Shown piece after piece: positions 1,457-12,977 of a DNA stretch of 13,121 bases (position 1 is the first letter of the stretch; every line of letters begins with the position of its first letter). Position numbers and translations under genes: made by a program. Source of the DNA: Promethearchaeota archaeon (lineage in GTDB: Archaea; Asgardarchaeota; Lokiarchaeia; Sigyniarchaeales; SOKP01); assembly GCA_004524535.1 (NCBI GenBank), contig SDNY01000102.1, positions 1 through 13,121 of the forward strand, written 5' to 3'. The notes under the pieces were generated by a model, which made no database searches, had not been told where the DNA came from, and saw only the letters and a program-made list of their open reading frames with translations.

Positions 1457-2719
1457 ATGAAACATCAATCTTTTATAATACTTATATTACTAACACTTTT
1501 TTCCTCAGCTTTAATGAGCATTATAATGCCGATGGCTAAAGAAGTTGCGCAAACTTTAAAATTAGAAAGTGAAGCTCAAGTTCAGATTATAAATTCAATT
1601 TTTTTATTCGTTGGGGCATTTAGTTCAATAGCATGGGCAATTTTGGGTGATAAATTTTCACGCAAAATAATGCTAATCATTGGAACATTTATATGGTCAT
1701 TTTTTTCATTTCTTACTATTTTCGCAACAGATTTTTATTCGTTATTATTCTTTCAAATATTTGCTGCTATTGGCTTTGGTTCAGCATTGCCTTTAATATT
1801 TTCTTTATTGGTAGATTCAATCGAGGCAGAAAAAAGAGGAAAATCTTTTGGTACTTTAAGTGCCGCTTATGTTCTAGGTAATGGTTTAGGTCATATGCTT
1901 TCAGGATTTTTAATTGATTATTTTCCTTGGATAGTGCCATTTATTATAATTTCTATATGCGGGATTTTTTGTATGATATTTTTATTTTTCATGAAGGAGC
2001 CTACCAGAGGTGAAATGGAGACATCATCAGAGATGGACGATGAGAGTCTGGGATTAAGTTTTAAAATAAAGATAAAAGATTTCAAGAAAATTTGGCAGAA
2101 AAAGACAATCTTTTGGATATTAATTTTTAATTTCGTTATGTTTGTAGCTATTGGAGCTATATCATCGAATTTTATTTCAATGTTAAAAAATGATTATCAT
2201 TTTAGTTCTAGCATAGCTACCTTATTTCTAATTATTGTTTTCGGTAGCCAAATGATAAGCGGGCCTATAATAGGGGATTTGGCTGATAAAAAAAATAAAA
2301 CTGATAAAAATGGAAGAATAAAATATGTTCTCATCTGTATAGTAATAGGATCAATATGTTATATCATTGGATTTTGCTTAATATTCTCATCTAATAATGT
2401 AATTATGCTGATTATTTTCTTTATTTTTGTCTTAATAGGTGCCTTCTTTTTTGGAGGTATTGATCCGCTTACGCAAGCAACACTAGGAGATATAAGCCCT
2501 CCACAAATTAGATCTACGATTTACTCTCTCAATTTTTTAGCTTATACTTTTGGTCGAAGTTTGAGCATATTACTTTTAGCATTTCTTTTCATAGGCTACG
2601 GCAATCTTTATAGACCGGGTTATGTAATCTTATCAATAATGGCACTCATTAGTTCTCTATTTGTATTTATATTATTAAATACCTTACCTAAGGATTTAGA
2701 TGCCACTGAATCTGATTAA
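1457..2719 (+). CDS. Major facilitator superfamily transporter (about 12 TM helices)
   Basis: 420 aa with about 12 hydrophobic segments. MFS motif A-like GDKFSRK follows TM2 and is echoed as GDLADKK in the C-terminal half. E-KRG follows TM4, and the central loop begins EPTRGEME. Confidence 0.92.
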   Translation: MKHQSFIILILLTLFSSALMSIIMPMAKEVAQTLKLESEAQVQIINSIFLFVGAFSSIAWAILGDKFSRKIMLIIGTFIWSFFSFLTIFATDFYSLLFFQIFAAIGFGSALPLIFSLLVDSIEAEKRGKSFGTLSAAYVLGNGLGHMLSGFLIDYFPWIVPFIIISICGIFCMIFLFFMKEPTRGEMETSSEMDDESLGLSFKIKIKDFKKIWQKKTIFWILIFNFVMFVAIGAISSNFISMLKNDYHFSSSIATLFLIIVFGSQMISGPIIGDLADKKNKTDKNGRIKYVLICIVIGSICYIIGFCLIFSSNNVIMLIIFFIFVLIGAFFFGGIDPLTQATLGDISPPQIRSTIYSLNFLAYTFGRSLSILLLAFLFIGYGNLYRPGYVILSIMALISSLFVFILLNTLPKDLDATESD

Positions 2720-2755
2720 AAACGCAATAAGCAATTAAAAAGCTAGGTTATTGTA

Positions 2756-3457
2756 ATGGAAATAAGAGAAGATCTCTGCGTTGGATGCGGTAAGTGCGAA
2801 ATAATTTGTCCCGTTCAAGCTATTAAAATAATTGATAACAAAGCAGTTATAGATAAAAATCTTTGCGTAGAATGTTCTATATGTTATCGAAACGCAGAAT
2901 GTCCTGTCAATGCGATTAAATCCAGACGATTAAAATGGCCGCGAATTATTCGTAATCCATTTAGCGATGTGATTGGTACACATAAATTAACAGGGATACC
3001 AGGAAGAGGGACAGAAGAAATGAAAACTAACGATGTAACTAATCGTTTTGGAACAGATGAGTATGGGATCTCTATTGAATTAGGGCGCCCTGGAGTTGGA
3101 ACGCAGCTAAAAAATATCGAATTATTTACAACAAAACTTTCACAGATAGGAGTAGAATATGAACCTATGAGTCCAGTTACAGCAATTTTAACTGAAAATA
3201 AAATCAATATTAAGGATGATATAAGAGATGAGCGTGTTCTCTCTGCTATTATTGAATTCAAAATTCCTAAAAATAAGATAAATCAGGTTTTACAAGTAAT
3301 CAAAGAAGTGGAAAAAGAAATTGATACAGTATTTTCGGTTGGGATCGTTTCACGAGTAATGGAAGATGGCTCAATTCCGATTATAGATATATTAGATCAG
3401 CAAGGGTTTAAAGTTAATCCAAATGCTAAAATTAACATAGGCTTAGGTAGAGCCTAA
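2756..3457 (+). CDS. 2x[4Fe-4S] dicluster domain protein with a C-terminal domain of unknown function
   Basis: N-terminal [12 protein letters not shown] and [14 protein letters not shown] ferredoxin motifs. The remaining ~170 aa contain conserved-looking motifs [20 protein letters not shown] and [12 protein letters not shown] lies upstream of the ATG. Confidence 0.85.
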
Positions 3458-3460
3458 ATA

Positions 3461-3467
3461 GAGGTGG
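3461..3467 (+). promoter_or_regulatory. Shine-Dalgarno site GAGGTGG
   Basis: Strong SD 6 nt upstream of the in-frame ATA at 3474, just after the upstream stop at 3455-3457. Confidence 0.7.
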
Positions 3468-3473
3468 AAAGCG

Positions 3474-4061
3474 ATAACACATTCATTACATAGAGTTGGA
3501 ACTGTTGAAGATTTAAAAGAGGATTATGTGATATTAGCAATGCTGGCGGCTGGAATTAATGATAAATATCCAGATTCACGTAAAAGATTAATAAGGACTG
3601 CTGAAATCATGAAAAAACATAATCCTACAAATATGATGAGGGAGGCGGCTTGGAAGATTTCTCCTGTTATCACAGCTACTTTTACAGATATCGAAACAGT
3701 TAAACAAATTACTCGAACTTTAAAAGAAGAAGATTTAGGAGTTTCTATTGTGATAAGTGGTCTGATTTCTGAAATTAAGGAAGCAGTTAAAGAGATCGGT
3801 TTGAATATGCATACAGTCCATCTTTCATTAGGTGTATTTGGAAAGAAAGAGTTATTACCATCTGAAAAAGTTCTAGAAATTACCACTGGCTGTGGTCATC
3901 ATTGCATTTCACCGCAATCCGTGGAGTATTATGTTGATTTAATTAAAAATGGTAAAATAACAATTAAAAAAGCAGCGGAGAAATTGTCCAAACCTTGTGT
4001 TTGTGGGATTTCAAATATAAAAAGGTATATCAAGATTTTAGAAGAGCTAACTCTCCCATAA
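3474..4061 (+). CDS. Conserved hypothetical His/Cys-rich, probably metal-binding partner of the Fe-S protein (195 aa from ATA 3474; the track calls 177 aa from GTG 3528)
   Basis: The frame is open from TAG 3459-3461. ATA ACA CAT TCA TTA CAT AGA reads (M)THSLHRVGTVEDLKEDYV. C-terminal motifs TTGCGHHCIS and KPCVCGISN. It follows the Fe-S gene by 16 nt. Confidence 0.8.
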   Translation: MTHSLHRVGTVEDLKEDYVILAMLAAGINDKYPDSRKRLIRTAEIMKKHNPTNMMREAAWKISPVITATFTDIETVKQITRTLKEEDLGVSIVISGLISEIKEAVKEIGLNMHTVHLSLGVFGKKELLPSEKVLEITTGCGHHCISPQSVEYYVDLIKNGKITIKKAAEKLSKPCVCGISNIKRYIKILEELTLP

Positions 4062-4063
4062 TT

Positions 4064-5434
4064 CTATTCCCCTAAATAAACATTGTCTTTCAGCAAGGTT
4101 TTACGTAATAGGCTATAGGGTAACTCCCTAGAATGCAGCTCGTTAAGGGCACACAGAGCTGCAGCTGTCCCTGCACCTTGCCCTTGTCCCATGCAAGCTA
4201 CCGTATTCCGGGTTGACATATGGGCCTTAAAATCTTTAGTTATCATCATCCCAGTAGCATATAGATTCTCGATATCTTTCACCAATAATGCTCTGTATGG
4301 GATACCGTAAACACCTCCATCCTTAATTTGAATAAATGGAGCAAGGTCATGGAAACCGTACACCATGATCTCATCTTCAAACCGTTGGGCATTAACAATA
4401 TCTTCTAGGGAAATATCATAATCACAATCTATCAATCTACCTCGCCGGATACATAAAGAGGGGCTAGTGCGAGTGATAAATGCCTTTTCACATCCTGGAA
4501 TATACTTTCGAATAAGATTTACAGCTTTTTGCATTCTTTGTCGTAAAATTACCTCCGTTTTTGAGACATCATCTCTGTTTGTTGGACTGTTCTTCATTTT
4601 TTTATTTAATTTGACAAACATGAAATAATCATCATGAATTGAAGTGATTACTGGATGCATTCCTATTCTTCTTCCTTCTTTTAAAAAACTTAGGGGGGGT
4701 TTCACATATTTCGCATCTAACCTTACCATTTTATTCATTTCCCCACTTCGTTTACCTTCACAATATTGGGACAAGGCATTATTCTTGGATAGGAAATCGT
4801 GGTATTTTTCGATACTGACTCCTGCTACTCCGATACTGTTTGCTACCGGATAATCATTCGGTTCGCTAAACTTCGCGCTGGCATATGCACATAAGTCTCC
4901 ATATCCGGTGCAATCGACAAATGAATGTGCATAAAAAGCTTCTCTTCCTGATCTACTCTCCACTATTATGCCCTGTATAGTTGATTTATCCATAATCACC
5001 CCTCTAACAAAAGAATTTAAAAAAATATGGACTCCTGCGTCTTGTAGCATTTCGAGAGAAATCAATTTATAGAGTTCGGTGTCAATGGCTGTACACACGG
5101 AATCGTAATCGTAACCCTTCAACATTTCAGCATGACCAGTAGTTCCCCCCACCTGTTCTAATCTGGTTATTATCTCTTGTGGAATCCCTCTAACAACCTG
5201 CCGTTTTTCTATCCCGGGAAATGCTTTCCATAAATTAAAAAAACTATGTAATGCAGTCCCTGCTTCAACCACATTTCCTCCAGTGTATCCCTTTCCTTCT
5301 ATCAGCGCAGTTTTTGCCCCCGTTCTAGCAGAAGCTATCGCAGCAACCACTCCACCCGTTCCACCTCCCGCAATGACTACATCAAAATTCCTAATGGGGA
5401 GTTTTTTTGCGGGTTCATTATAATATTTCAACAA
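4064..5434 (-). CDS. FAD-dependent oxidoreductase (FAD_oxidored/PF12831-like)
   Basis: Rossmann motif DVVIAGGGTGGVVAAIASARTGAKTALIE, then FVDCTGYGD, YGIPYRALL, NLYATG and R-x4-CMGQGQGAGTAAAL. TTG start with SD AGGTGA at 5444-5439. Confidence 0.88.
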   Translation of the reverse strand: MLKYYNEPAKKLPIRNFDVVIAGGGTGGVVAAIASARTGAKTALIEGKGYTGGNVVEAGTALHSFFNLWKAFPGIEKRQVVRGIPQEIITRLEQVGGTTGHAEMLKGYDYDSVCTAIDTELYKLISLEMLQDAGVHIFLNSFVRGVIMDKSTIQGIIVESRSGREAFYAHSFVDCTGYGDLCAYASAKFSEPNDYPVANSIGVAGVSIEKYHDFLSKNNALSQYCEGKRSGEMNKMVRLDAKYVKPPLSFLKEGRRIGMHPVITSIHDDYFMFVKLNKKMKNSPTNRDDVSKTEVILRQRMQKAVNLIRKYIPGCEKAFITRTSPSLCIRRGRLIDCDYDISLEDIVNAQRFEDEIMVYGFHDLAPFIQIKDGGVYGIPYRALLVKDIENLYATGMMITKDFKAHMSTRNTVACMGQGQGAGTAAALCALNELHSRELPYSLLRKTLLKDNVYLGE

Positions 5435-5438
5435 TTGT

Positions 5439-5444
5439 TCACCT
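5439..5444 (-). promoter_or_regulatory. Shine-Dalgarno site AGGTGA
   Basis: tcacct on the plus strand, 4 nt from TTG 5434 and 7 nt from the alternative TTG 5431. Confidence 0.7.
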
Positions 5445-5529
5445 ATTTTTCATATTTGTTAATTATGGTTTAAATCTAGTTAAATTTAAAGATTCTTAAT
5501 GAGTTAGTAAATTAATCATAATTATAATG

Positions 5530-6756
5530 CTATTTGAGTGTTTTTTTGGCTAATTCTTCAAGTTCTCGTTCAGAAATGAAATCTTGAGTCTTTATTTTCT
5601 CTTTAATTTGTTTGCGTAGAGTGTCTAACTGTTCTGCAGTTGGAGTCAAACCGATTTTATTTAATTTCGCCTTAAGCGCCCTATCTTGAAGTGTGGTTGC
5701 GCCAAAGATCAGTTTCCGATTCTGTCCGACCACATGAGGTTGAAATAATTCCCAAGTTGTCCAATTCCCAATCAAAATTTGCTCTACATGTAAATCTGAT
5801 TCGTGAATGAAACAATTTTTACCTACAATAGATTTATGGGGTTGCAATGGCGTTTTACTATATTTCTCAATAAGTTGAGAAACTTCCATAATTTTATCCA
5901 ACTTTAAATTTAAATCAATTCCATATAAAATTTCAAGCGCCATTATAACTTCTTCAGTAGCAGCATTTCCAGCTCTATCTCCAAGTCCGTTGAATACCAC
6001 ATCAACGATTTCGGCTCCACCTTCGACACCGGCAAGTGTAGTTGCGGTCGCTAATCCTAAATCATTATGAGTATGAACCTCAATAGGGATATCTCCAACG
6101 ATATTTTTTGTAAATTCAACGTTATCTTTAAAGGCGGAAGGATGTGCACATCCATTTCCATCATAAACAACAATTCTATCTACTCCAGCCTCCATGGCCA
6201 ATGCTAAAAATTTTTTCCAGTACCGGGGAATCACACGTCCAGAACCAAATGCTACAGTGACGTCTTGCGATTTCGCATATTCTATGCCTTCAACAATTCT
6301 TTCAAACACAGCATTTTTAGTTTTTAATACAGGACCAGGAACAAGTAAAAAGTTAATATGATCGGCTCCAGCGCTTATTATATCATCAACTTCTCTTTTA
6401 ATATCTTCAGCATATAATCTCGCATGTGAAGAAAGCATCATTTTTATTCCGTCTCTTTTGAGCGCTTTAAATGTGTCAGCATGTTCCTTAATTCCTGCCG
6501 CATACCCTACTTCGATTTCAGGGATTCCCATCTCTTCTAAAAGCTTCGCAATCTCGACTTTTTCATCAATGGTAAAATAAGTACCTGGTGTTTCCTCCCC
6601 TTCTCTCAGTGTATCATCCTTTATAATTATTTTTTCTGGCAAGTTCATTTGGCTGCGAACGGAATCGGCAAAGTTCCATTCAAAACTCCACCATCTTTGA
6701 TCTTTATCCATTCTCATGGAAGCCCATGCATTCCACCACATTCTTTTATACCTCAT
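5530..6756 (-). CDS. LeuA/homocitrate synthase-like DRE-TIM metalloenzyme (pyruvate carboxyltransferase family) without a C-terminal regulatory domain; substrate uncertain
   Basis: DDTLREGEET (DRE motif), metal ligands EVHTHNDLGLA, NGLGDRAGNA and PHKSIVGKNCFIHESDLH; 408 aa. The start may be Met1 (6756), Met6 (6741, GAGGT 8 nt upstream) or Met14 (6717). Confidence 0.88.
   Translation of the reverse strand: MRYKRMWWNAWASMRMDKDQRWWSFEWNFADSVRSQMNLPEKIIIKDDTLREGEETPGTYFTIDEKVEIAKLLEEMGIPEIEVGYAAGIKEHADTFKALKRDGIKMMLSSHARLYAEDIKREVDDIISAGADHINFLLVPGPVLKTKNAVFERIVEGIEYAKSQDVTVAFGSGRVIPRYWKKFLALAMEAGVDRIVVYDGNGCAHPSAFKDNVEFTKNIVGDIPIEVHTHNDLGLATATTLAGVEGGAEIVDVVFNGLGDRAGNAATEEVIMALEILYGIDLNLKLDKIMEVSQLIEKYSKTPLQPHKSIVGKNCFIHESDLHVEQILIGNWTTWELFQPHVVGQNRKLIFGATTLQDRALKAKLNKIGLTPTAEQLDTLRKQIKEKIKTQDFISERELEELAKKTLK
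6682..6727. repeat. Copy A of a 46-bp imperfect direct repeat (inside the 5' end of the LeuA-like CDS)
   Basis: aaaactccaccatctttgatctttatccattctcatggaagcccat aligns without gaps to 11660-11705 at 40/46 identity (33/36 over 6682-6717). Confidence 0.9.
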
Positions 6757-6861
6757 TATGAATATTTAATTCTAAAGTGATTTGGAGAAATTTAAAATTT
6801 ACTACTTTTAAACAATTAATGCTTATGATTATAGAATTGACATTTTTAAGTAAAAGATAAT

Positions 6862-6876
6862 AAAAATAAAAAAAAA
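6862..6876 (-). terminator. Putative archaeal oligo-T terminator of the surface-protein gene
   Basis: T9-A-T5 on the minus strand, starting 16 nt after the stop at 6893. Confidence 0.55.
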
Positions 6877-6892
6877 TTAATTAAATTTTAAG

Positions 6893-9800
6893 TTATTCTC
6901 TCTTTAATTTAGAGATATCGATAATACCTTTCTTGATTAACACTATTATAACAGCAACTAAGCCGCCTATAGTTGCTAACACAATTATAACAACCACTAC
7001 GATGATAGCATTAGTTTCTTCAACTTCTTCGTCATCGTCATCGTCATCACCTGCAGGAGGTGCAGGACCACCAGGAGCTCCATCTTTAACTATTTTAATA
7101 ACAACATTTTCAGTTTGGTTTATGTTACCATTATTATCAATTGCCCAAATAGTAATACTATAATCTCCTGAAGTGTATAATGAGATGTTATTCCAAGAGC
7201 AGTTCCAATAGAACCCCGATAGTGTCATGGAAATGTTAAACGGCGTTGAGGCATTTATCATTGCTACTGCTTGCGTTACATCCGTTATTGAGGCATTGAT
7301 CAATAAAGAAGCAGGACCATATGTGCCGGCAGCAGGATTGATTATTAACACACTTGGTCCATCAGTATCAATCGTGATAATGACAAATTCAGTTGCATTA
7401 ACATTACCTCTATTATCAATTGCCCAAATAGTAATACTATAATCGCCTGAAGGGAATAATGAGATGTTACTCCAGTAGCAGATCCAATAGGATCCCGATA
7501 GTGTCATGGAAATATTAAACGGCATTGAGGCATTTATCATTGCTACTGCTTGCGTTACATCCGTTATTGAGGCATTGATCAATAAGGAAGCAGGACCGTA
7601 AGTGTCAGCTAAAGGTTCGATTATGGTCACACTTGGTCCATCAGTATCAATCGTGATAATGATAAATTCAGGTGCATTTACGTTACCATTGTTATCAATT
7701 GCCCAAATGGTAATATTATAATCTCCTGAAATGTATAGTGAGATGTTATTCCAATAGCAGTTCCAATAGGATCCCGATAGTGTCATGGAAATATTAAATG
7801 GCGTTGAGGCATTTATCATTGCCAGTGCCTGTGTAACTGTGCCATATGTATCTGTTATTGAAGCATTGATCAATAAAGAAGCAGGCCCATATGTGCCAGC
7901 CGAAGGCTCGATAATTAATACGATTGGTGGAGTTTCATCCCCATCCCAACAAATTGGATAAAGATCTTGCCGATTTCCTTCTCCTGGTAAATCATGTGGT
8001 GTATTTCCAATTCCATCATCATCAGGATCACTTCCCGTATAATTATCCCAGTAATTTCCAATTTCAGTAATAGGATCATACCAGTAATTTACCGCATTGA
8101 CATCATCACGAGCATGTAATGTGTTATTTATAAATTGGTTCTCATAGAAATAATTATTCTCACAAGTATCTCCACCCGTATCATCCAAAAATGCGCCAAT
8201 TACGGAATTGTTTTTAATAATATTCCCTTTAAATGTATTCAAATCGCAATCAGCGTTTATGTAAATACCGTACTGAGTATTATTGGTTATAAGATTATTC
8301 GTTATTGTAGAATTTTTACACGCGTTAAATAAAGTTATACCGTTTTCATTATTCGAATCTATAGTATTTTCGATAATTGTTGTATTATAACAATTGTCCT
8401 CTATTCTAATTCCGTTAGTATTGCCGATTATCGTGTTATTATAAATTATGGTAAAGTTGCTTTTAGTTAAAATATATATTCCAAATCCTCCGTTATTATA
8501 TATAGTATTATTTATAATATCGTTGTCAGAACATTCCGTATTTAAATATATCCCTTCCAAAACATGTCCAATTATTGTATTATTAATGATATCATTATTT
8601 TCAGGACCTCCAATGCCAGAGCCAGCTTCATCTAAATATATTCCATATTCTTGCGAATATCCATTTATAGTATTTTTTATTGTATTCCCTATTATGCTAT
8701 TTCCAGTACATTTTCCCTCATCAGATCCCAACACATGAGTAAAGATCCAGATCCCATAATCATCATTATCATATATTGTATTATTAAGAATCGTGTTTCC
8801 ATTAGCTCCATCTTCGATAAGGATACCAGAGTCTAAGTTATTATAGATCATATTATGTTTAACAGTATTACTGTCTGGACCCCAAATATATATTCCATGG
8901 TTTAAATTCTCATAAATTTTATTGTCGATAATTTCAGTGCCGGAAACATAGCTATAAAGATAGGCTCTCATTCGTATCCCATTATGATCATTACCATATA
9001 TTGTGTTGTTTGCTATTATAGTGTTATAGCAATTATAATAGATTAGAATTCCATCCCATTGATTTTTTCCTACTCCATTCTCATCATACACCGTATTATT
9101 TATAATCTCATTATTATCTGAAAAATCCCATATAAAAATTCCACTTTCATAATTATCTCGGATGATATTGTTGAAAATAAAATTTAAGCAGCTTGATTTT
9201 ATACACACCCCTGCGTCATTCACACTATTTCCATTATCAAATACTGTGTTGTTAATAATATCATTTTCACTTGACATAAACAGACAAATTCCACCAGATG
9301 CGTCGATAGGGACGCTCGGGAAATGTCCATTACTCATTATAGTGTTATTTACAATATTATTTAGAGTTGAAAAAAACTCCAAATAAACTCCGAACTCATC
9401 ATGATTTATAATTGTATTATTAATTATGTCGCAATTATTACTTAAACTTAAATATATTCCATAATCTCCATTATCAATTATTATATTGTTTATTATATCA
9501 TTAAGATCACTGCTACTTATCGAGATTCCATAACTATCGTGCCCTTTTATAGTATTATTTTTTATAACACAATTTTCAGAACCAGAGTCTAATCTTATCC
9601 CTACATCCTGTGAATATCCGCTAAATGTGTGATTTATGATGTTATTGCTAAAGATCTTAGTGTCATCACAATTACTATCTAAATTAATTCCATAGCGCTC
9701 GTTATCAAGAATAATGTTTTTAAAGATAAAAGTGCCAGAACTCTCCGTAATATATATTCCATCATAATATTCAGTATTTTTTATCGTATTGTTCATAATA

Positions 9801-11410
9801 TTATTGTTGTTAGAAGTGCTTTGAATATAGATTCCATAATTTCTATGATTAATTATTGTATTATTTTCAAATGTATTACCGACGCTTGATCCCGATATAA
9901 CAACTCCATAATCGGTTTTTGAATTTGCTCCATCTAAAATGTTATCAAAAAAATCATTATTATTGCTTAATTGCATCAAAAAAATTCCACGCCATTCATT
10001 GCCTCGAATAGTATTATTTTCAATGGTGTTGTCATTAGCTTGATTAAGGGTAATTCCAGAAGCTCCATTGTCAATTAGTGTATTATTTATAACATCAACT
10101 AAAGCTATACTCCCCAAATATATCCCATAATTTCCATTATTCGATATAGTATTATTTATAATATCACAATCATCATTATAAAACGCAAGAATACCATTTC
10201 TGCCATTAAATTCAACTTTATTATCTATAATCGTACTGAAGTCACAACCTTGTACAAGCAAACCATCATTTGAACCTCCTAATTTGCCATTATTGAAAAT
10301 CTTGTTATTTTTAATTATATAATTATAAGTGTTATACTCATTCATCCTGTTTAATCCCACAAATATTCCTTCATCAGCATTATTGTATACAATGTTATCT
10401 GTGATATTGATATCATTAGTGTCATCTCCAACAGCTATACCAATGTCATATTGGGTACCATCTCCACAACCGCTAATTTCGTTCCCAGAAATGGTAACAA
10501 AATCGCTATCCCTAAGAACATAGATTCCAATATTTATAGCAACTCCTCCATCCACTCCATCTATAGTATTGTTTATTATTTTATTATAACTATTGGAAAG
10601 GAAGAGCCCATCTACTAATATTCCCGCATGAGTACTATCTGCTATTGTATTATTAAAAATCAAGTTATTATCAGAATCATCTTCGACAATTAATCCATAA
10701 CTATTAGTATTTTTTATTTTATTATCAGTAATATTATTATTATCACAATTATCTTCTATATACATACCATTTGAGCCACTATATATTTCATTTTCTGTCA
10801 CATTATTATCATGGCAGTTTGTCTTCATATAAACCCCCCGATAGCAATTTGTAAAAGTATTATTCCAAATTGTATTATTATTGCAGTTAGAACTCAAAAG
10901 AATTCCACTTCCTTGATTATTCGAGCAATTATTATCAAAAATAATCCCGTTATTTGTATTGTAGAGTTTAATTCCTCCATAATCTGAACCGCTTGAGGAA
11001 TTAAAAACAGTACAGTTCCTAATGATAAATGGTCTAATTGAGTTTTTTATCTCCATTCCATTACTAAGTTGCATTGCGTCTATTGAAACATTTTCAATGA
11101 TATAGAAATAGCCGTCAAAATAACACCAATCATTGTCTTTGGCAGTTTTAGTCCAATTATAATTCCCATCTGCATCATCTATGATAATAGGAGAAAAAAG
11201 CTCATATTGAGCGGAAATCTTTGGAGGTCTTGAATCGATCTCATTTATATCCTGTCTATCATCGTTTCTATCAATTTTTATTCTATAATCATCATTGTCA
11301 GACTCATTATTAATAAAATCATCTTTCTCCGTCGAATTTGTAGCAATCAATGCAAACAGAGCAAAGAGAACAACTATACCAAATAAAATATAAAATTTTC
11401 TGTTTTTCAT
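6893..11410 (-). CDS. Large membrane-anchored surface glycoprotein: right-handed parallel beta-helix (NosD/PbH1-type repeats), three Ig-like repeats, Pro/Gly and acidic linker, C-terminal TM helix
   Basis: Signal peptide MKNRKFYILFGIVVLFALFALIA. About 1000 aa of GI-x-L...N-x-I-x-NN-x-I coils. NosD-type cap GNYWDNYTGSDPDDDGIGNTP. Three 93-97 aa repeats each containing ITIWAIDNxGN. Then GAPGGPAPPAGDDDDDDEEVEE, a hydrophobic helix and a basic tail. AGGGGA lies upstream of the ATG. Confidence 0.92.
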   Translation of the reverse strand: MKNRKFYILFGIVVLFALFALIATNSTEKDDFINNESDNDDYRIKIDRNDDRQDINEIDSRPPKISAQYELFSPIIIDDADGNYNWTKTAKDNDWCYFDGYFYIIENVSIDAMQLSNGMEIKNSIRPFIIRNCTVFNSSSGSDYGGIKLYNTNNGIIFDNNCSNNQGSGILLSSNCNNNTIWNNTFTNCYRGVYMKTNCHDNNVTENEIYSGSNGMYIEDNCDNNNITDNKIKNTNSYGLIVEDDSDNNLIFNNTIADSTHAGILVDGLFLSNSYNKIINNTIDGVDGGVAINIGIYVLRDSDFVTISGNEISGCGDGTQYDIGIAVGDDTNDINITDNIVYNNADEGIFVGLNRMNEYNTYNYIIKNNKIFNNGKLGGSNDGLLVQGCDFSTIIDNKVEFNGRNGILAFYNDDCDIINNTISNNGNYGIYLGSIALVDVINNTLIDNGASGITLNQANDNTIENNTIRGNEWRGIFLMQLSNNNDFFDNILDGANSKTDYGVVISGSSVGNTFENNTIINHRNYGIYIQSTSNNNNIMNNTIKNTEYYDGIYITESSGTFIFKNIILDNERYGINLDSNCDDTKIFSNNIINHTFSGYSQDVGIRLDSGSENCVIKNNTIKGHDSYGISISSSDLNDIINNIIIDNGDYGIYLSLSNNCDIINNTIINHDEFGVYLEFFSTLNNIVNNTIMSNGHFPSVPIDASGGICLFMSSENDIINNTVFDNGNSVNDAGVCIKSSCLNFIFNNIIRDNYESGIFIWDFSDNNEIINNTVYDENGVGKNQWDGILIYYNCYNTIIANNTIYGNDHNGIRMRAYLYSYVSGTEIIDNKIYENLNHGIYIWGPDSNTVKHNMIYNNLDSGILIEDGANGNTILNNTIYDNDDYGIWIFTHVLGSDEGKCTGNSIIGNTIKNTINGYSQEYGIYLDEAGSGIGGPENNDIINNTIIGHVLEGIYLNTECSDNDIINNTIYNNGGFGIYILTKSNFTIIYNNTIIGNTNGIRIEDNCYNTTIIENTIDSNNENGITLFNACKNSTITNNLITNNTQYGIYINADCDLNTFKGNIIKNNSVIGAFLDDTGGDTCENNYFYENQFINNTLHARDDVNAVNYWYDPITEIGNYWDNYTGSDPDDDGIGNTPHDLPGEGNRQDLYPICWDGDETPPIVLIIEPSAGTYGPASLLINASITDTYGTVTQALAMINASTPFNISMTLSGSYWNCYWNNISLYISGDYNITIWAIDNNGNVNAPEFIIITIDTDGPSVTIIEPLADTYGPASLLINASITDVTQAVAMINASMPFNISMTLSGSYWICYWSNISLFPSGDYSITIWAIDNRGNVNATEFVIITIDTDGPSVLIINPAAGTYGPASLLINASITDVTQAVAMINASTPFNISMTLSGFYWNCSWNNISLYTSGDYSITIWAIDNNGNINQTENVVIKIVKDGAPGGPAPPAGDDDDDDEEVEETNAIIVVVVIIVLATIGGLVAVIIVLIKKGIIDISKLKRE
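7031..7048. repeat. (GATGAC)3 microrepeat encoding poly-Asp
   Basis: gtcatc x3 on the plus strand encodes DDDDDD on the minus strand. Confidence 0.8.
7091..7939 (-). repeat. Three tandem intragenic repeats (291, 279 and 279 bp) encoding Ig-like domains
   Basis: Units are 7649-7939, 7370-7648 and 7091-7369. Identical blocks: 61 bp at 7246-7306 and 7525-7585, and 35 bp at 7349-7383 and 7628-7662. Confidence 0.95.
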
Positions 11411-11470
11411 ATACTTTCCCCTAGTATTTTATATATTTGTCAAAAATTTATATTAAGAATTAATTAGACA

Positions 11471-11491
11471 TTTTTATATATAAGTGTTTTG
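11471..11491 (-). promoter_or_regulatory. Putative BRE plus TATA promoter of the surface-protein gene
   Basis: The minus strand reads CAAAACAC-TTATATATAAAAA about 60 nt upstream of ATG 11410. The core TTATATATAA is palindromic. Confidence 0.55.
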
Positions 11492-11623
11492 TATGGGAAA
11501 AATAATTTAAATATCATAACAAAATATAGTAAATTCTAAATCAAACCTATGATATAGGATCAATCACATTTTCAAAATCAGAAAAATAACTAATATCGCT
11601 GTCCCACTCTTTTTGTATCCATT

Positions 11624-11707
11624 CTAAAGGATATAACTTAAAAAACTTTTCAGACACCTAAAACTCCACCATCGTTGGGCTTTATCCATTCTCATTGAAA
11701 GCCATAC
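11624..11707 (-). pseudogene. Orphan 5' fragment of the LeuA-like gene (copy B of the 46-bp repeat), forming the 23-aa mini-ORF MRMDKAQRWWSFRCLKSFLSYIL
   Basis: The minus strand reads VWLS-MRMDKAQRWWSF, against AWAS-MRMDKDQRWWSF in the intact gene. ATG at 11695, TAG at 11626-11624. Confidence 0.75.
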
Positions 11708-11718
11708 TTTTTTTTTTT
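11678..11718 (+). terminator. Terminator-like hairpin plus T11 on the plus strand with no plus-strand CDS upstream
   Basis: GGCTTT (11678-83), 14 nt, AAAGCC (11698-703), ATAC, then T11 (11708-18). Confidence 0.35.
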
Positions 11719-11768
11719 ATTAAATTAAAAAATTGAAGATTTAAAAGATTATATTCGAATCTGAGTTA

Positions 11769-12977
11769 CTATATTTTTATCAAGTCATACTCGATATTAC
11801 CAAGTTTACTCTTAACGGCAGCATCAAAAAAAGAAGATGTATTGACTAAATTATTCATTGCATTAAATTTCTCAATTCCAGGAGCAACAGGTTGAGTCCA
11901 TTGTCCTTTTTGATTTAAGATTGGGAGTCCAGGGGCATTAATCTCTGCATCGACACAAGCTTTATCTATAGCAACGGGATCAGATGAAGCAAATATACCA
12001 AGATCAGGGATAATAGACATATTAGGGCTAGAAACGCAATCGCATTGGGAAGTTACATCTATAGCAAAGTTAATATAACGTATATTTTTACGATCGTAAG
12101 AAGATAATACACCAACAGCATTATCAACAACTTTTTCCGTAAAATTTTTAAAATCCAAATTAAAGGATTGATTTATTGCTTTTTTCACGGGACAACTTTC
12201 AGAACAACCCAAACAGCCAACACAAATGGACGGATCAATAATTGCAGATTCACCTTCTATTTTAATAGCATTTACAGGACAAACTTTTATACATTCTTGA
12301 TCACATTTAGAAATATTACACTTTTTAGAATTTATACTCAAATTTTCATTAAAGTGAGCCCGAAACTTACCTAGCTTAGCTAAACAGCCAATTCCAAGTT
12401 GCTTCATCGCCCCCCCAAAACATGTTAATCCATGTCCTTTGAAATGTGAAACTATAATAATTTTATCAAATTCAAAAAGTCCTGCTGCAATAGCAATTTT
12501 ATTAAGATGAACTCCCTCTATTTCAAAGATTTTTGCATCAAATCCTTTTTCACCATCTATAAACTTCAATGGTGCTCCAATTATAGATTCAGTATATCCA
12601 TGAAGCCGGGCTGTATTATAGTGTTTAGTTGCCGTCTTTCTACTTCCAAAAGAGATCGTAAAATTTTCAGAGATAGTTCTATGACGAGCTTCCATTCCTA
12701 ATCCTTGGGTCTCTATAAGAGTTGGAATGCCCCCTTTTGATTTAACTGCATTGACAACTTCAAATACATAATCATGGCGTAAATAATGTGTATTATATGC
12801 TTCACCAACATGAACTTTTATTCCAACTTTATCTCCAGAATTAATATTATCTAATATTTTATCTAATAACAAGCGAGTTTTTACTAAATTATTTGTCTTC
12901 ATAATTGCTGTGGAGGGACTTAGGGCGGAAATAAGCTCATTTGGTGGAGCCCAATAAACAATCGATTTTTCTGACAT
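11769..12977 (-). CDS. DUF362 family Fe-S protein (COG2768-like) with an inserted 2x[4Fe-4S] ferredoxin domain
   Basis: GDKVGIKVHVGE, SHFKGHGLTCFGGAMKQLGIGC, CDC and PDLGIFASSDPVAIDKACVD. The ferredoxin insert has CNISKCDQECIKVCP and CVGCLGCSESCP. Confidence 0.9.
   Translation of the reverse strand: MSEKSIVYWAPPNELISALSPSTAIMKTNNLVKTRLLLDKILDNINSGDKVGIKVHVGEAYNTHYLRHDYVFEVVNAVKSKGGIPTLIETQGLGMEARHRTISENFTISFGSRKTATKHYNTARLHGYTESIIGAPLKFIDGEKGFDAKIFEIEGVHLNKIAIAAGLFEFDKIIIVSHFKGHGLTCFGGAMKQLGIGCLAKLGKFRAHFNENLSINSKKCNISKCDQECIKVCPVNAIKIEGESAIIDPSICVGCLGCSESCPVKKAINQSFNLDFKNFTEKVVDNAVGVLSSYDRKNIRYINFAIDVTSQCDCVSSPNMSIIPDLGIFASSDPVAIDKACVDAEINAPGLPILNQKGQWTQPVAPGIEKFNAMNNLVNTSSFFDAAVKSKLGNIEYDLIKI

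Follow-up and report, generated by a model that had tools for sequence, protein, structure and literature searches.

A conserved ferredoxin-domain and Cys3-His protein pair in a probable mosaic locus of a Lokiarchaeal genome

Results

The window analysed here is the whole of contig SDNY01000102.1 (13,121 bp; C41) from a 3.66-Mb, 30.4% GC genome of a Lokiarchaeal Promethearchaeota archaeon. Its forward strand carries a conserved operon whose first gene encodes a major facilitator superfamily (MFS) transporter (1457..2719; PF07690 at 3.2e-48). The transporter gene is followed by Fer233 (2756..3457), which has an N-terminal 2x[4Fe-4S] ferredoxin domain matched by Fer4 families and a C-terminal domain without a name, and by hyp195 (3474..4061), a Cys3-His protein and partner of Fer233 that has no match in Pfam or NCBIfam and an apparent ATA start codon. 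On the reverse strand lie a PF12831 FAD-dependent oxidoreductase (4064..5434; 235 bits), a LeuA-like DRE-TIM protein of the HMGL-like/HCS_D2 type (5530..6756; PF00682 at 1.1e-49, PF22617 at 4.1e-11), a beta-helix/NosD surface protein of 1505 aa (6893..11410; PF13229, PF05048) and a DUF362 protein with an inserted 2x[4Fe-4S] domain (11769..12977; PF04015 at 8e-35).

The initial annotation of this DNA had set the surface gene aside and had read the other six genes as one possible uncharacterised organic-acid module made of two convergent units. Its description of the layout holds. All six open reading frames (ORFs) are present; the two units meet 2 nucleotides (nt) apart, with stop codons at 4059-4061 and 4064-4066; and the surface gene stands between the two copies of a 51-nt direct repeat (84% identity), copy A within the LeuA-like coding sequence at its 5' end (6682-6732) and copy B just downstream of DUF362 (11660-11710). 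It had also found no LeuC/D/B-type or aconitase-like gene, and there is indeed no aconitase-like or Iso_dh gene on the contig; the genome's four aconitase-family and three Iso_dh genes sit on contigs C8, C82, C39, C123 and C38. What it called the metal partner of the Fe-S protein is a genuine gene, hyp195, with a product of 195 aa rather than 177.

The module itself does not survive a comparison with relatives. In three genomes of the same genus (G008, G005 and G002), DUF362 abuts the LeuA-like gene, which in turn lies tail-to-tail with hyp195, followed by Fer233 and the MFS gene; neither the FAD oxidoreductase nor the beta-helix gene is found between those genes there. The unit that recurs consists of MFS, Fer233 and hyp195 together with the LeuA-like gene and its paralogue, the latter being on another contig in the window genome. 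No unit of all six families appears in the relatives' loci, and by the criterion of co-occurrence, to which the initial annotation had tied its module, that module is refuted. The best reading of the locus is instead a mosaic, made of a conserved core, a family-restricted DRE-TIM accessory, a genus-level DUF362 neighbour and two insertions.

The core of this mosaic is best seen in the Fer233-hyp195 pair. A species-level scan gave 79 loci with the pair, 47 in Asgard archaea and 32 elsewhere, the sources being Asgard archaea, Sulfolobales/Desulfurococcales, Dehalococcoidia, Anaerolineales, Clostridia and other Bacillota, Syntrophia and Desulfobacteria. In 77 of the 79 (46/47 Asgard, 31/32 non-Asgard), Fer233 immediately precedes hyp195 and shares its strand, the two exceptions being one locus at a contig edge and one other (L110). 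Fer233 and hyp195 are an obligate pair. Fer233 is matched in Pfam by Fer4 families alone, over residues 2-58, and its eight cysteines, the motif GRGTEE..KTND and the C-terminal K.N.GLGR are invariant in 26 sequences. For hyp195, which falls into 356 clusters (50% identity) at E ≤ 0.001, 39 sequences share C140-G-H142, C175-x-C177 and N181 without exception, and a further His and the N-terminal THxLHR are also conserved. The window pair thus shows all the marks by which we recognise a member: adjacent genes on one strand, an 8-Cys ferredoxin domain with GRGTEE..KTND, and a partner with C-G-H ... C-x-C.

The conserved N-terminus of hyp195 (ITHSLHR...) is in frame from an ATA at 3474, with GGTGG ahead of it at 3463-3467, and we place the start at this codon because the conserved N-terminus would otherwise be cut off. 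The same ATA is found at the hyp195 start in the nearest relative, G008 (L019, about 11015-11020); other relatives have ATG at this position, with THSLHR kept in frame. Translation of hyp195 therefore appears to start at ATA in the window genome and in G008.

Structure predictions suggest that the two proteins bind each other. The AlphaFold2 (AF2) models have a pLDDT of 89.3 for Fer233 and 86.4 for hyp195. The predicted complex scores 0.93, a figure for the model's confidence rather than a measured binding, against 0.01 for the best of three controls, with runs agreeing in at least 97% of contacts and a partner pLDDT of at least 90; the mark applied to this score is reached by 58 of 80 solved complexes and by 2 of 110 mismatched pairs, counts that apply here only approximately, since the prediction used our own alignments. 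The predicted interface comprises residues 84-95 and 218-233 of Fer233 and residues 1-8, 110-125, 142-149 and 173-177 of hyp195, and the invariant motifs of both chains lie in it. In fold searches, Foldseek returned no match in the PDB at E ≤ 0.001 for either whole model, and a wide VIA-align search with hyp195 gave a best Z of 7.1, not above unrelated rows, from an alignment that covered the N-terminal alpha/beta domain and barely touched the C-terminal Cys domain. Among solved folds the pair matches nothing beyond generic alpha/beta sandwiches and the ferredoxin domain, and the ESM Atlas holds only unnamed or '4Fe-4S binding' clusters for it.

Two natural fusions bear on what the pair does. 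In a metagenome-assembled genome of Dehalococcoidales (L108, 5791-7998) Fer233 is fused to a GltD-like Pyr_redox_2/Fer4_20 module, and in protein P0369 hyp195 is fused to a Fer4_11 polyferredoxin domain; an electron-transfer role for the pair is therefore indicated. Several bacterial genomes (L116, L118, L120, L123, L124, L113) have the pair in duplicate or triplicate, in tandem or close together, and this suggests paralogous enzymes that differ in their substrates. We also came across a 3822-aa protein (P0384) with seven hyp195-similar stretches and no Pfam match, either a giant repeat protein or a mis-prediction.

The surroundings of the pair were scanned with Pfam in 26 of the 32 non-Asgard loci (L124, L127, L130-L132 and L136 were left out). 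AFOR is adjacent to the pair in 8 of the 26, and uptake systems (TctABC, TRAP, CitMHS, Peripla_BP_6) lie near it in 12. LarA-like genes, all in Dehalococcoidia, are near the pair in five loci, HpcH/HpaI aldolase genes likewise in five and HMGL-family genes in four; a GntR/FCD regulator is directly upstream in four. In one locus (L229, genome G356) a single strand encodes a short HMGL/HCS_D2 protein, an amidohydrolase, a TAXI-TRAP system, Fer233 and hyp195. This bacterial context fits carboxylic-acid uptake and conversion, and it is here that part of the first interpretation survives: the pair belongs to an uncharacterised, probably organic-acid-related unit, and the idea of uptake and conversion of carboxylic acids stands on the bacterial contexts, with the six-gene composition and the membership of the FAD oxidoreductase and DUF362 given up.

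In Asgard archaea the MFS gene takes the place of those transporters, and an orthologue (at least 45% identity) is found in at least 30 of the 47 pair loci. The window protein scores 164.9 against 33.4 on the Pfam MFS_1 model and reaches no NCBIfam subfamily cut-off, the best being an aromatic acid/H+ symport family (77.3 against 418.55). Many Asgard genomes also have an MntR-like regulator, an NpdG-like reductase, DUF1028 and Zn-ADH on the operon's strand. At the other side of the MFS gene, the window begins with a truncated 400-aa ORF (3-1202), whose large Pfam-less relatives, 34-61% identical, adjoin the MFS gene in genomes of the same genus (L019 13273-19901, L020 13940-17260); this family is probably located at the cell surface. 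Arf/Ras/Roc GTPase and gelsolin genes are also present in relatives' loci.

We now turn to the LeuA-like gene, whose distribution, with that of hyp195, was counted on one sample of 251 Asgard genomes. Orthologues 77-88% identical occur in 16 of the 54 other genomes of the archaeal family and in none of the 196 other Asgard genomes, the next relatives being about 42% identical. hyp195 is present in 16 of the 17 carriers of the LeuA-like gene and in 10 of the 38 family genomes without it, and in nine carriers, from four genera, it is no more than 1.5 kb from the LeuA-like gene and convergent with it. A 35%-identical paralogue of the LeuA-like gene is adjacent to it in 13 loci and flanks the other side of the operon in L041, L046 and L047; in the window genome this paralogue is on contig C126. 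The two paralogues fall in one clade, which has LREGEETPG, G-Y, YDxxG and HESDLH. For the protein of the window the likely start is Met6 (6741), in agreement with its 403-aa orthologues. Two orthologues have in-frame stops, a TGA in G018:C9:13652-14872 and a TAG in G204:C332:6091-7305, which may be sequencing errors, decay or recoding.

The LeuA-like protein has both the TIM barrel (PF00682, 169.6 bits) and HCS_D2 (PF22617, 43.6 bits) and remains below all NCBIfam cut-offs, with 306.3 against 517 for NF002085, 280.1 against 484.75 for TIGR02090, 246.5 against 462.9 for TIGR02660 and 234.2 against 413.55 for TIGR02146. Its closest solved relative is the homocitrate synthase 6ktq (9e-53). We mapped its active site on 6e1j numbering, with residue roles taken from passages of PMC11532901, which give Arg89 as binding substrate, His288 and His290 as metal ligands and His388 as the proposed general base, and which report no detectable activity for the MAMS mutants Q93A, Q93N, E227A, E227D, T257A and Y399S. 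The LeuA-like residues R51, H228, H230 and H323 correspond to R89, H288, H290 and H388 and are invariant in our alignment (A6). At the other positions D90 is replaced by E52, Q93 by E55, T257 by Gly and Y399 by W335, and E227 falls in a 3-residue deletion (C226-E227-D228). Five of the nine IPMS/MAMS active-site residues are thus lost or changed. In homocitrate synthase, the distal carboxylate of 2-oxoglutarate is presumably bound by the Arg of the 'VRF(S/T)AED' strand. The LeuA-like protein does not have this Arg: 'VKVRFTAEDATR' of 6ktq aligns to 'VTVAFGS---GR' of the LeuA-like protein.

The initial annotation had called this protein atypical and had left room for its being the genome's ordinary synthase. 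The first part is borne out and the second is not: a canonical LeuA (on C76) and CimA (on C78) exist elsewhere in the genome, the former passing the NCBIfam cut-off for 2-isopropylmalate synthase (581.8 against 517) and the latter that for citramalate synthase (685.1 against 450); two further sub-threshold paralogues are also present. Judged from its sequence, the LeuA-like protein is no ordinary synthase, because of the active-site changes, the missed curated models and the canonical LeuA and CimA elsewhere. A metagenome scan for LREGEE-type relatives found LREGEE in one of 80 loci, the Asgard orthologue L173; its second pattern was a generic one and let in ordinary 'LRDGEQ' LeuA genes, which took up the list, so that bacterial LREGEE contexts were outside its reach. 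A search with P0211 in 301 genomes (the phylum of G285) gave three matches at E ≤ 1e-60, and those fetched lack LREGEE, reading LREGEQ or LRDGEQ or having no such motif by pattern. Our literature search found nothing on Claisen-type DRE-TIM proteins of unknown function.

The two insertions can be followed in the comparison. Repeat copy B aligns to the 5' ends of the LeuA-like genes in G008 and G005, both of which have an intact gene at that spot. The beta-helix gene entered the LeuA-like gene at its start, a relic of which was left beside DUF362; this surface-protein gene belongs to no pathway. Its C-terminal part contains three tandem 279-nt repeats at 7079-7915, the second and third being 85% and 67% identical to the first, and a 48-nt unit of the parallel beta-helix repeat is found again and again across 8474-10408.

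The second insertion is the FAD oxidoreductase. The protein is a full PF12831 member (235 bits against a gathering score of 27, with profile positions 1-416 of 416 matched), and its gene is not at this position in G008, G005, G002, G015 or any other genome examined. Its best match among 59 genomes of the archaeal family is 36% identical, against 65-69% identity to proteins named from Planctomycetota, Halanaerobiales, Oscillospiraceae, Anaerolineae and Sumerlaeota, and the local GC content is 0.37-0.385 compared with 0.304 genome-wide. Both of its junctions, with hyp195 and with the LeuA-like gene, are bridged by contigs 93-98% identical to the window from runs X2, X4 and X8 of three studies, and the insertion is therefore real rather than a chimera. 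The FAD oxidoreductase gene is a lineage-specific insertion, acquired from bacteria, between convergent genes. We looked for flanking repeats around it and found none that was convincing. A contig of run X5 that joins 3863 to 5487, skipping the gene, was not counted, its shorter side having 31 letters at 85% likeness. In genus g8 the place of the FAD oxidoreductase, between the LeuA-like gene and hyp195, is held by a conserved 240-aa ORF without a family (L022 11628-12347 in G015; L028, L029, L032).

As for DUF362, the window protein scores 121.1 bits against a Pfam gathering score of 24, with Fer4 matches within residues 215-270. Orthologues (at least 54% identity) are found in 26 of 59 other family genomes. 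Among the 12 LeuA-like carriers in the genomes covered by both searches, eight have one, which is adjacent to the LeuA-like gene in G002, G005 and G008 and on the same contig in G182, and four have none (G015, G018, G195, G223); at least seven genomes without the LeuA-like gene do have a DUF362 orthologue. A DUF362 orthologue lies within 8 kb of the Fer233-hyp195 pair in only three of the 47 Asgard loci. DUF362 is a genus-level neighbour only. None of the papers listed by a literature search on DUF362 reports a function for it in title or abstract. According to parts of PMC11770544, DUF362 and LarA are in the same Pfam clan, CL0471; an hhalign comparison of the DUF362 protein with LarA homologues, made with shallow alignments (Neff 1.7), was not significant (probability 0.7%, E 0.084, 35 columns). 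On contig C126 (L025 9132-14683) the LeuA-like paralogue is followed by three ORFs without a family (195, 181 and 397 aa) and then by a DUF362 paralogue, a neighbourhood not seen in the other genomes examined. This DUF362 paralogue, about 39% identical, occurs in nearly all genomes of the family.

Discussion

Our analysis takes the gene order, the distribution of the genes, the insertions and the residue changes as direct observations. How could they be combined into one picture? The picture we favour, and to which we give moderate credence, is that of a mosaic locus with an MFS-Fer233-hyp195 redox core, an accessory LeuA-like enzyme, a DUF362 neighbour and two insertions. Fer233, with its two [4Fe-4S] clusters, and hyp195, with its Cys3-His site, would form a heterodimeric redox protein, in which the ferredoxin domain would hand electrons on to a metal or Fe-S site formed jointly by the two subunits. 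This two-subunit site would convert a small carboxylic acid brought in by the MFS transporter. The LeuA-like enzyme, usually together with its paralogue, would be an accessory of one Lokiarchaeal family, repeatedly kept beside the operon, and it may make or cleave a C-C bond in a different 2-oxo or hydroxy acid tied to the operon's substrate. The class of the substrate, the direction of the pathway and the cooperation of the LeuA-like enzyme with the operon are what we infer here.

One can go further and suppose that Fer233-hyp195 represents a new class of ferredoxin-linked oxidoreductase, with a metal or Fe-S centre at the subunit interface, acting on 2-hydroxy or 2-oxo carboxylic acids, that the LREGEE-type DRE-TIM proteins are rewired lyases or synthases, and that together they make up an undescribed anaerobic organic-acid route in Lokiarchaeia. 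We offer this stronger proposal as speculation that is rather unlikely to hold in full.

Several observations weigh against the mosaic with a carboxylate-converting core. What precedes the operon in many Asgard genomes is an MntR-like metal regulator and not a carboxylate sensor, the MFS protein matches efflux and uptake families equally weakly, and neither Fer233 nor hyp195 has a fold match in Foldseek or VIA-align that hints at its chemistry. As for the LeuA-like enzyme, its gene and the operon are on different contigs in seven of the 16 genomes with both, five of these being clearly unlinked (G018, G236, G195, G265, G182). Even where they are neighbours, the convergent orientation means that they are not one transcript. 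One genome (G179) has the paralogue, the MFS gene and the LeuA-like gene without Fer233 or hyp195. Moreover the linked cases all come from one archaeal family, and therefore shared ancestry alone could explain the adjacency.

This last point leads to the alternative that survives best, though we still think it unlikely: only gene order was inherited, and the LeuA-like enzyme and its paralogue are biosynthetic, serving 2-oxo-acid elongation or acting as a homocitrate-like synthase. Convergent transcription and linkage in one family only are what one would expect from it, as is the loss of linkage in the greater part of genus g11, whose tandem paralogues have KAS III-like, AMP-binding and Nre genes as neighbours; the 77-88% identity of the orthologues is also typical of a constrained, housekeeping-like enzyme. 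However, the arrangement is kept in four genera and in two forms, flanking and tail-to-tail, and hyp195 is kept in 15 of the 16 other family carriers compared with 10 of the 38 non-carriers. Other HMGL-family genes adjoin the pair independently, in Dehalococcoidales, in Sulfolobales/Desulfurococcaceae and in G356. Unlike a core biosynthetic gene, moreover, the LeuA-like gene is patchy within genera (5/22 in g2, 6/18 in g11).

We regard as improbable the suggestion that all six genes nevertheless form one organic-acid pathway in this lineage, with the flavoenzyme and DUF362 recruited recently. Every member is indeed a redox or C-C enzyme, and since the hyp195/FAD oxidoreductase and FAD oxidoreductase/LeuA-like junctions recur in the runs of three studies (X2, X4, X8), this gene order is a stable one within a population. 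Genome G001 has a PF12831 paralogue (28% identity) two genes away from Fer233-hyp195, and LarA homologues, of the clan that parts of PMC11770544 assign also to DUF362, adjoin the pair in five Dehalococcoidia loci. However, the FAD oxidoreductase is of bacterial type and is found at this position in no other genome examined, the presence of DUF362 is uncoupled from that of the LeuA-like gene (four of 12 carriers without it, at least seven non-carriers with it), and DUF362 is within 8 kb of the pair in just three of the 47 Asgard loci.

Finally, a metal-controlled route of synthesis and export, in which LeuA-like enzymes would make a hydroxy-polycarboxylate, a citrate- or homocitrate-like metal chelator, by condensation of acetyl-CoA and an oxo acid and the MFS protein would export it, could draw on the MntR/DtxR-like regulator (PF01325/PF02742; 73.1 bits on the MntR model, under the cut-off of 138) that precedes the operon on the same strand in many Asgard genomes, on the weak MFS matches to efflux families and on a homocitrate synthase, 6ktq, as the closest solved LeuA-like relative, but we judge it very improbable, as the window has no such regulator, bacterial pairs sit with solute-binding uptake systems and catabolic enzymes, Fer233-hyp195 is left without a role, and the MAMS condensation residues E227, T257 and Q93 (as given in passages of PMC11532901) are missing or changed.

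The mosaic reading, more generally, shows how a plausible six-gene pathway drawn from one contig can break down under comparison, leaving one conserved core, one genus-level neighbour, one gene derived from bacteria and one inserted surface gene. How Asgard archaea feed, and how they work together with partners, is a subject of study, yet much of their metabolism is inferred from the names of protein families. A two-subunit Fe-S protein that is widespread in anaerobes and found in acid-catabolism clusters has so far been nameless, and the altered active site of the LeuA-like protein is a reason not to label it an isopropylmalate or homocitrate synthase.

How do these proteins compare with known systems? 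The DUF362 protein is linked to the LarA superfamily in that its DUF362 domain, placed in the same clan by PMC11770544, is recognised here and that LarA homologues adjoin Fer233-hyp195 in five bacterial loci, and it differs in its inserted di-cluster ferredoxin domain. The LeuA-like protein shares the HMGL-like barrel and HCS_D2, the substrate arginine, the two metal histidines and the putative general-base histidine with the Claisen-condensing DRE-TIM synthases (IPMS, MAMS, citramalate and homocitrate synthase; 6e1j, 6ktq, 3rmj), and with the homocitrate synthase of S. acidocaldarius (6ktq) it further shares a Glu metal ligand ('LREGE') at the Asp90 position. Unlike these synthases, it has a Trp-rich N-terminal extension and no LeuA_dimer domain, and its gene lacks LeuBCD-type partners nearby and is confined to one Lokiarchaeal family. 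Residues 1-58 of Fer233 superpose on the clostridial-type 2x[4Fe-4S] ferredoxins 1fdn and 9g03_E over 55 residues with probability 1.00, and the frequent position of its gene beside AFOR recalls the ferredoxin-like electron-transfer subunits of oxidoreductases. However, compared with known ferredoxins Fer233 has about 175 more residues, which match no family or fold, together with invariant motifs of its own and an obligate Cys3-His partner.

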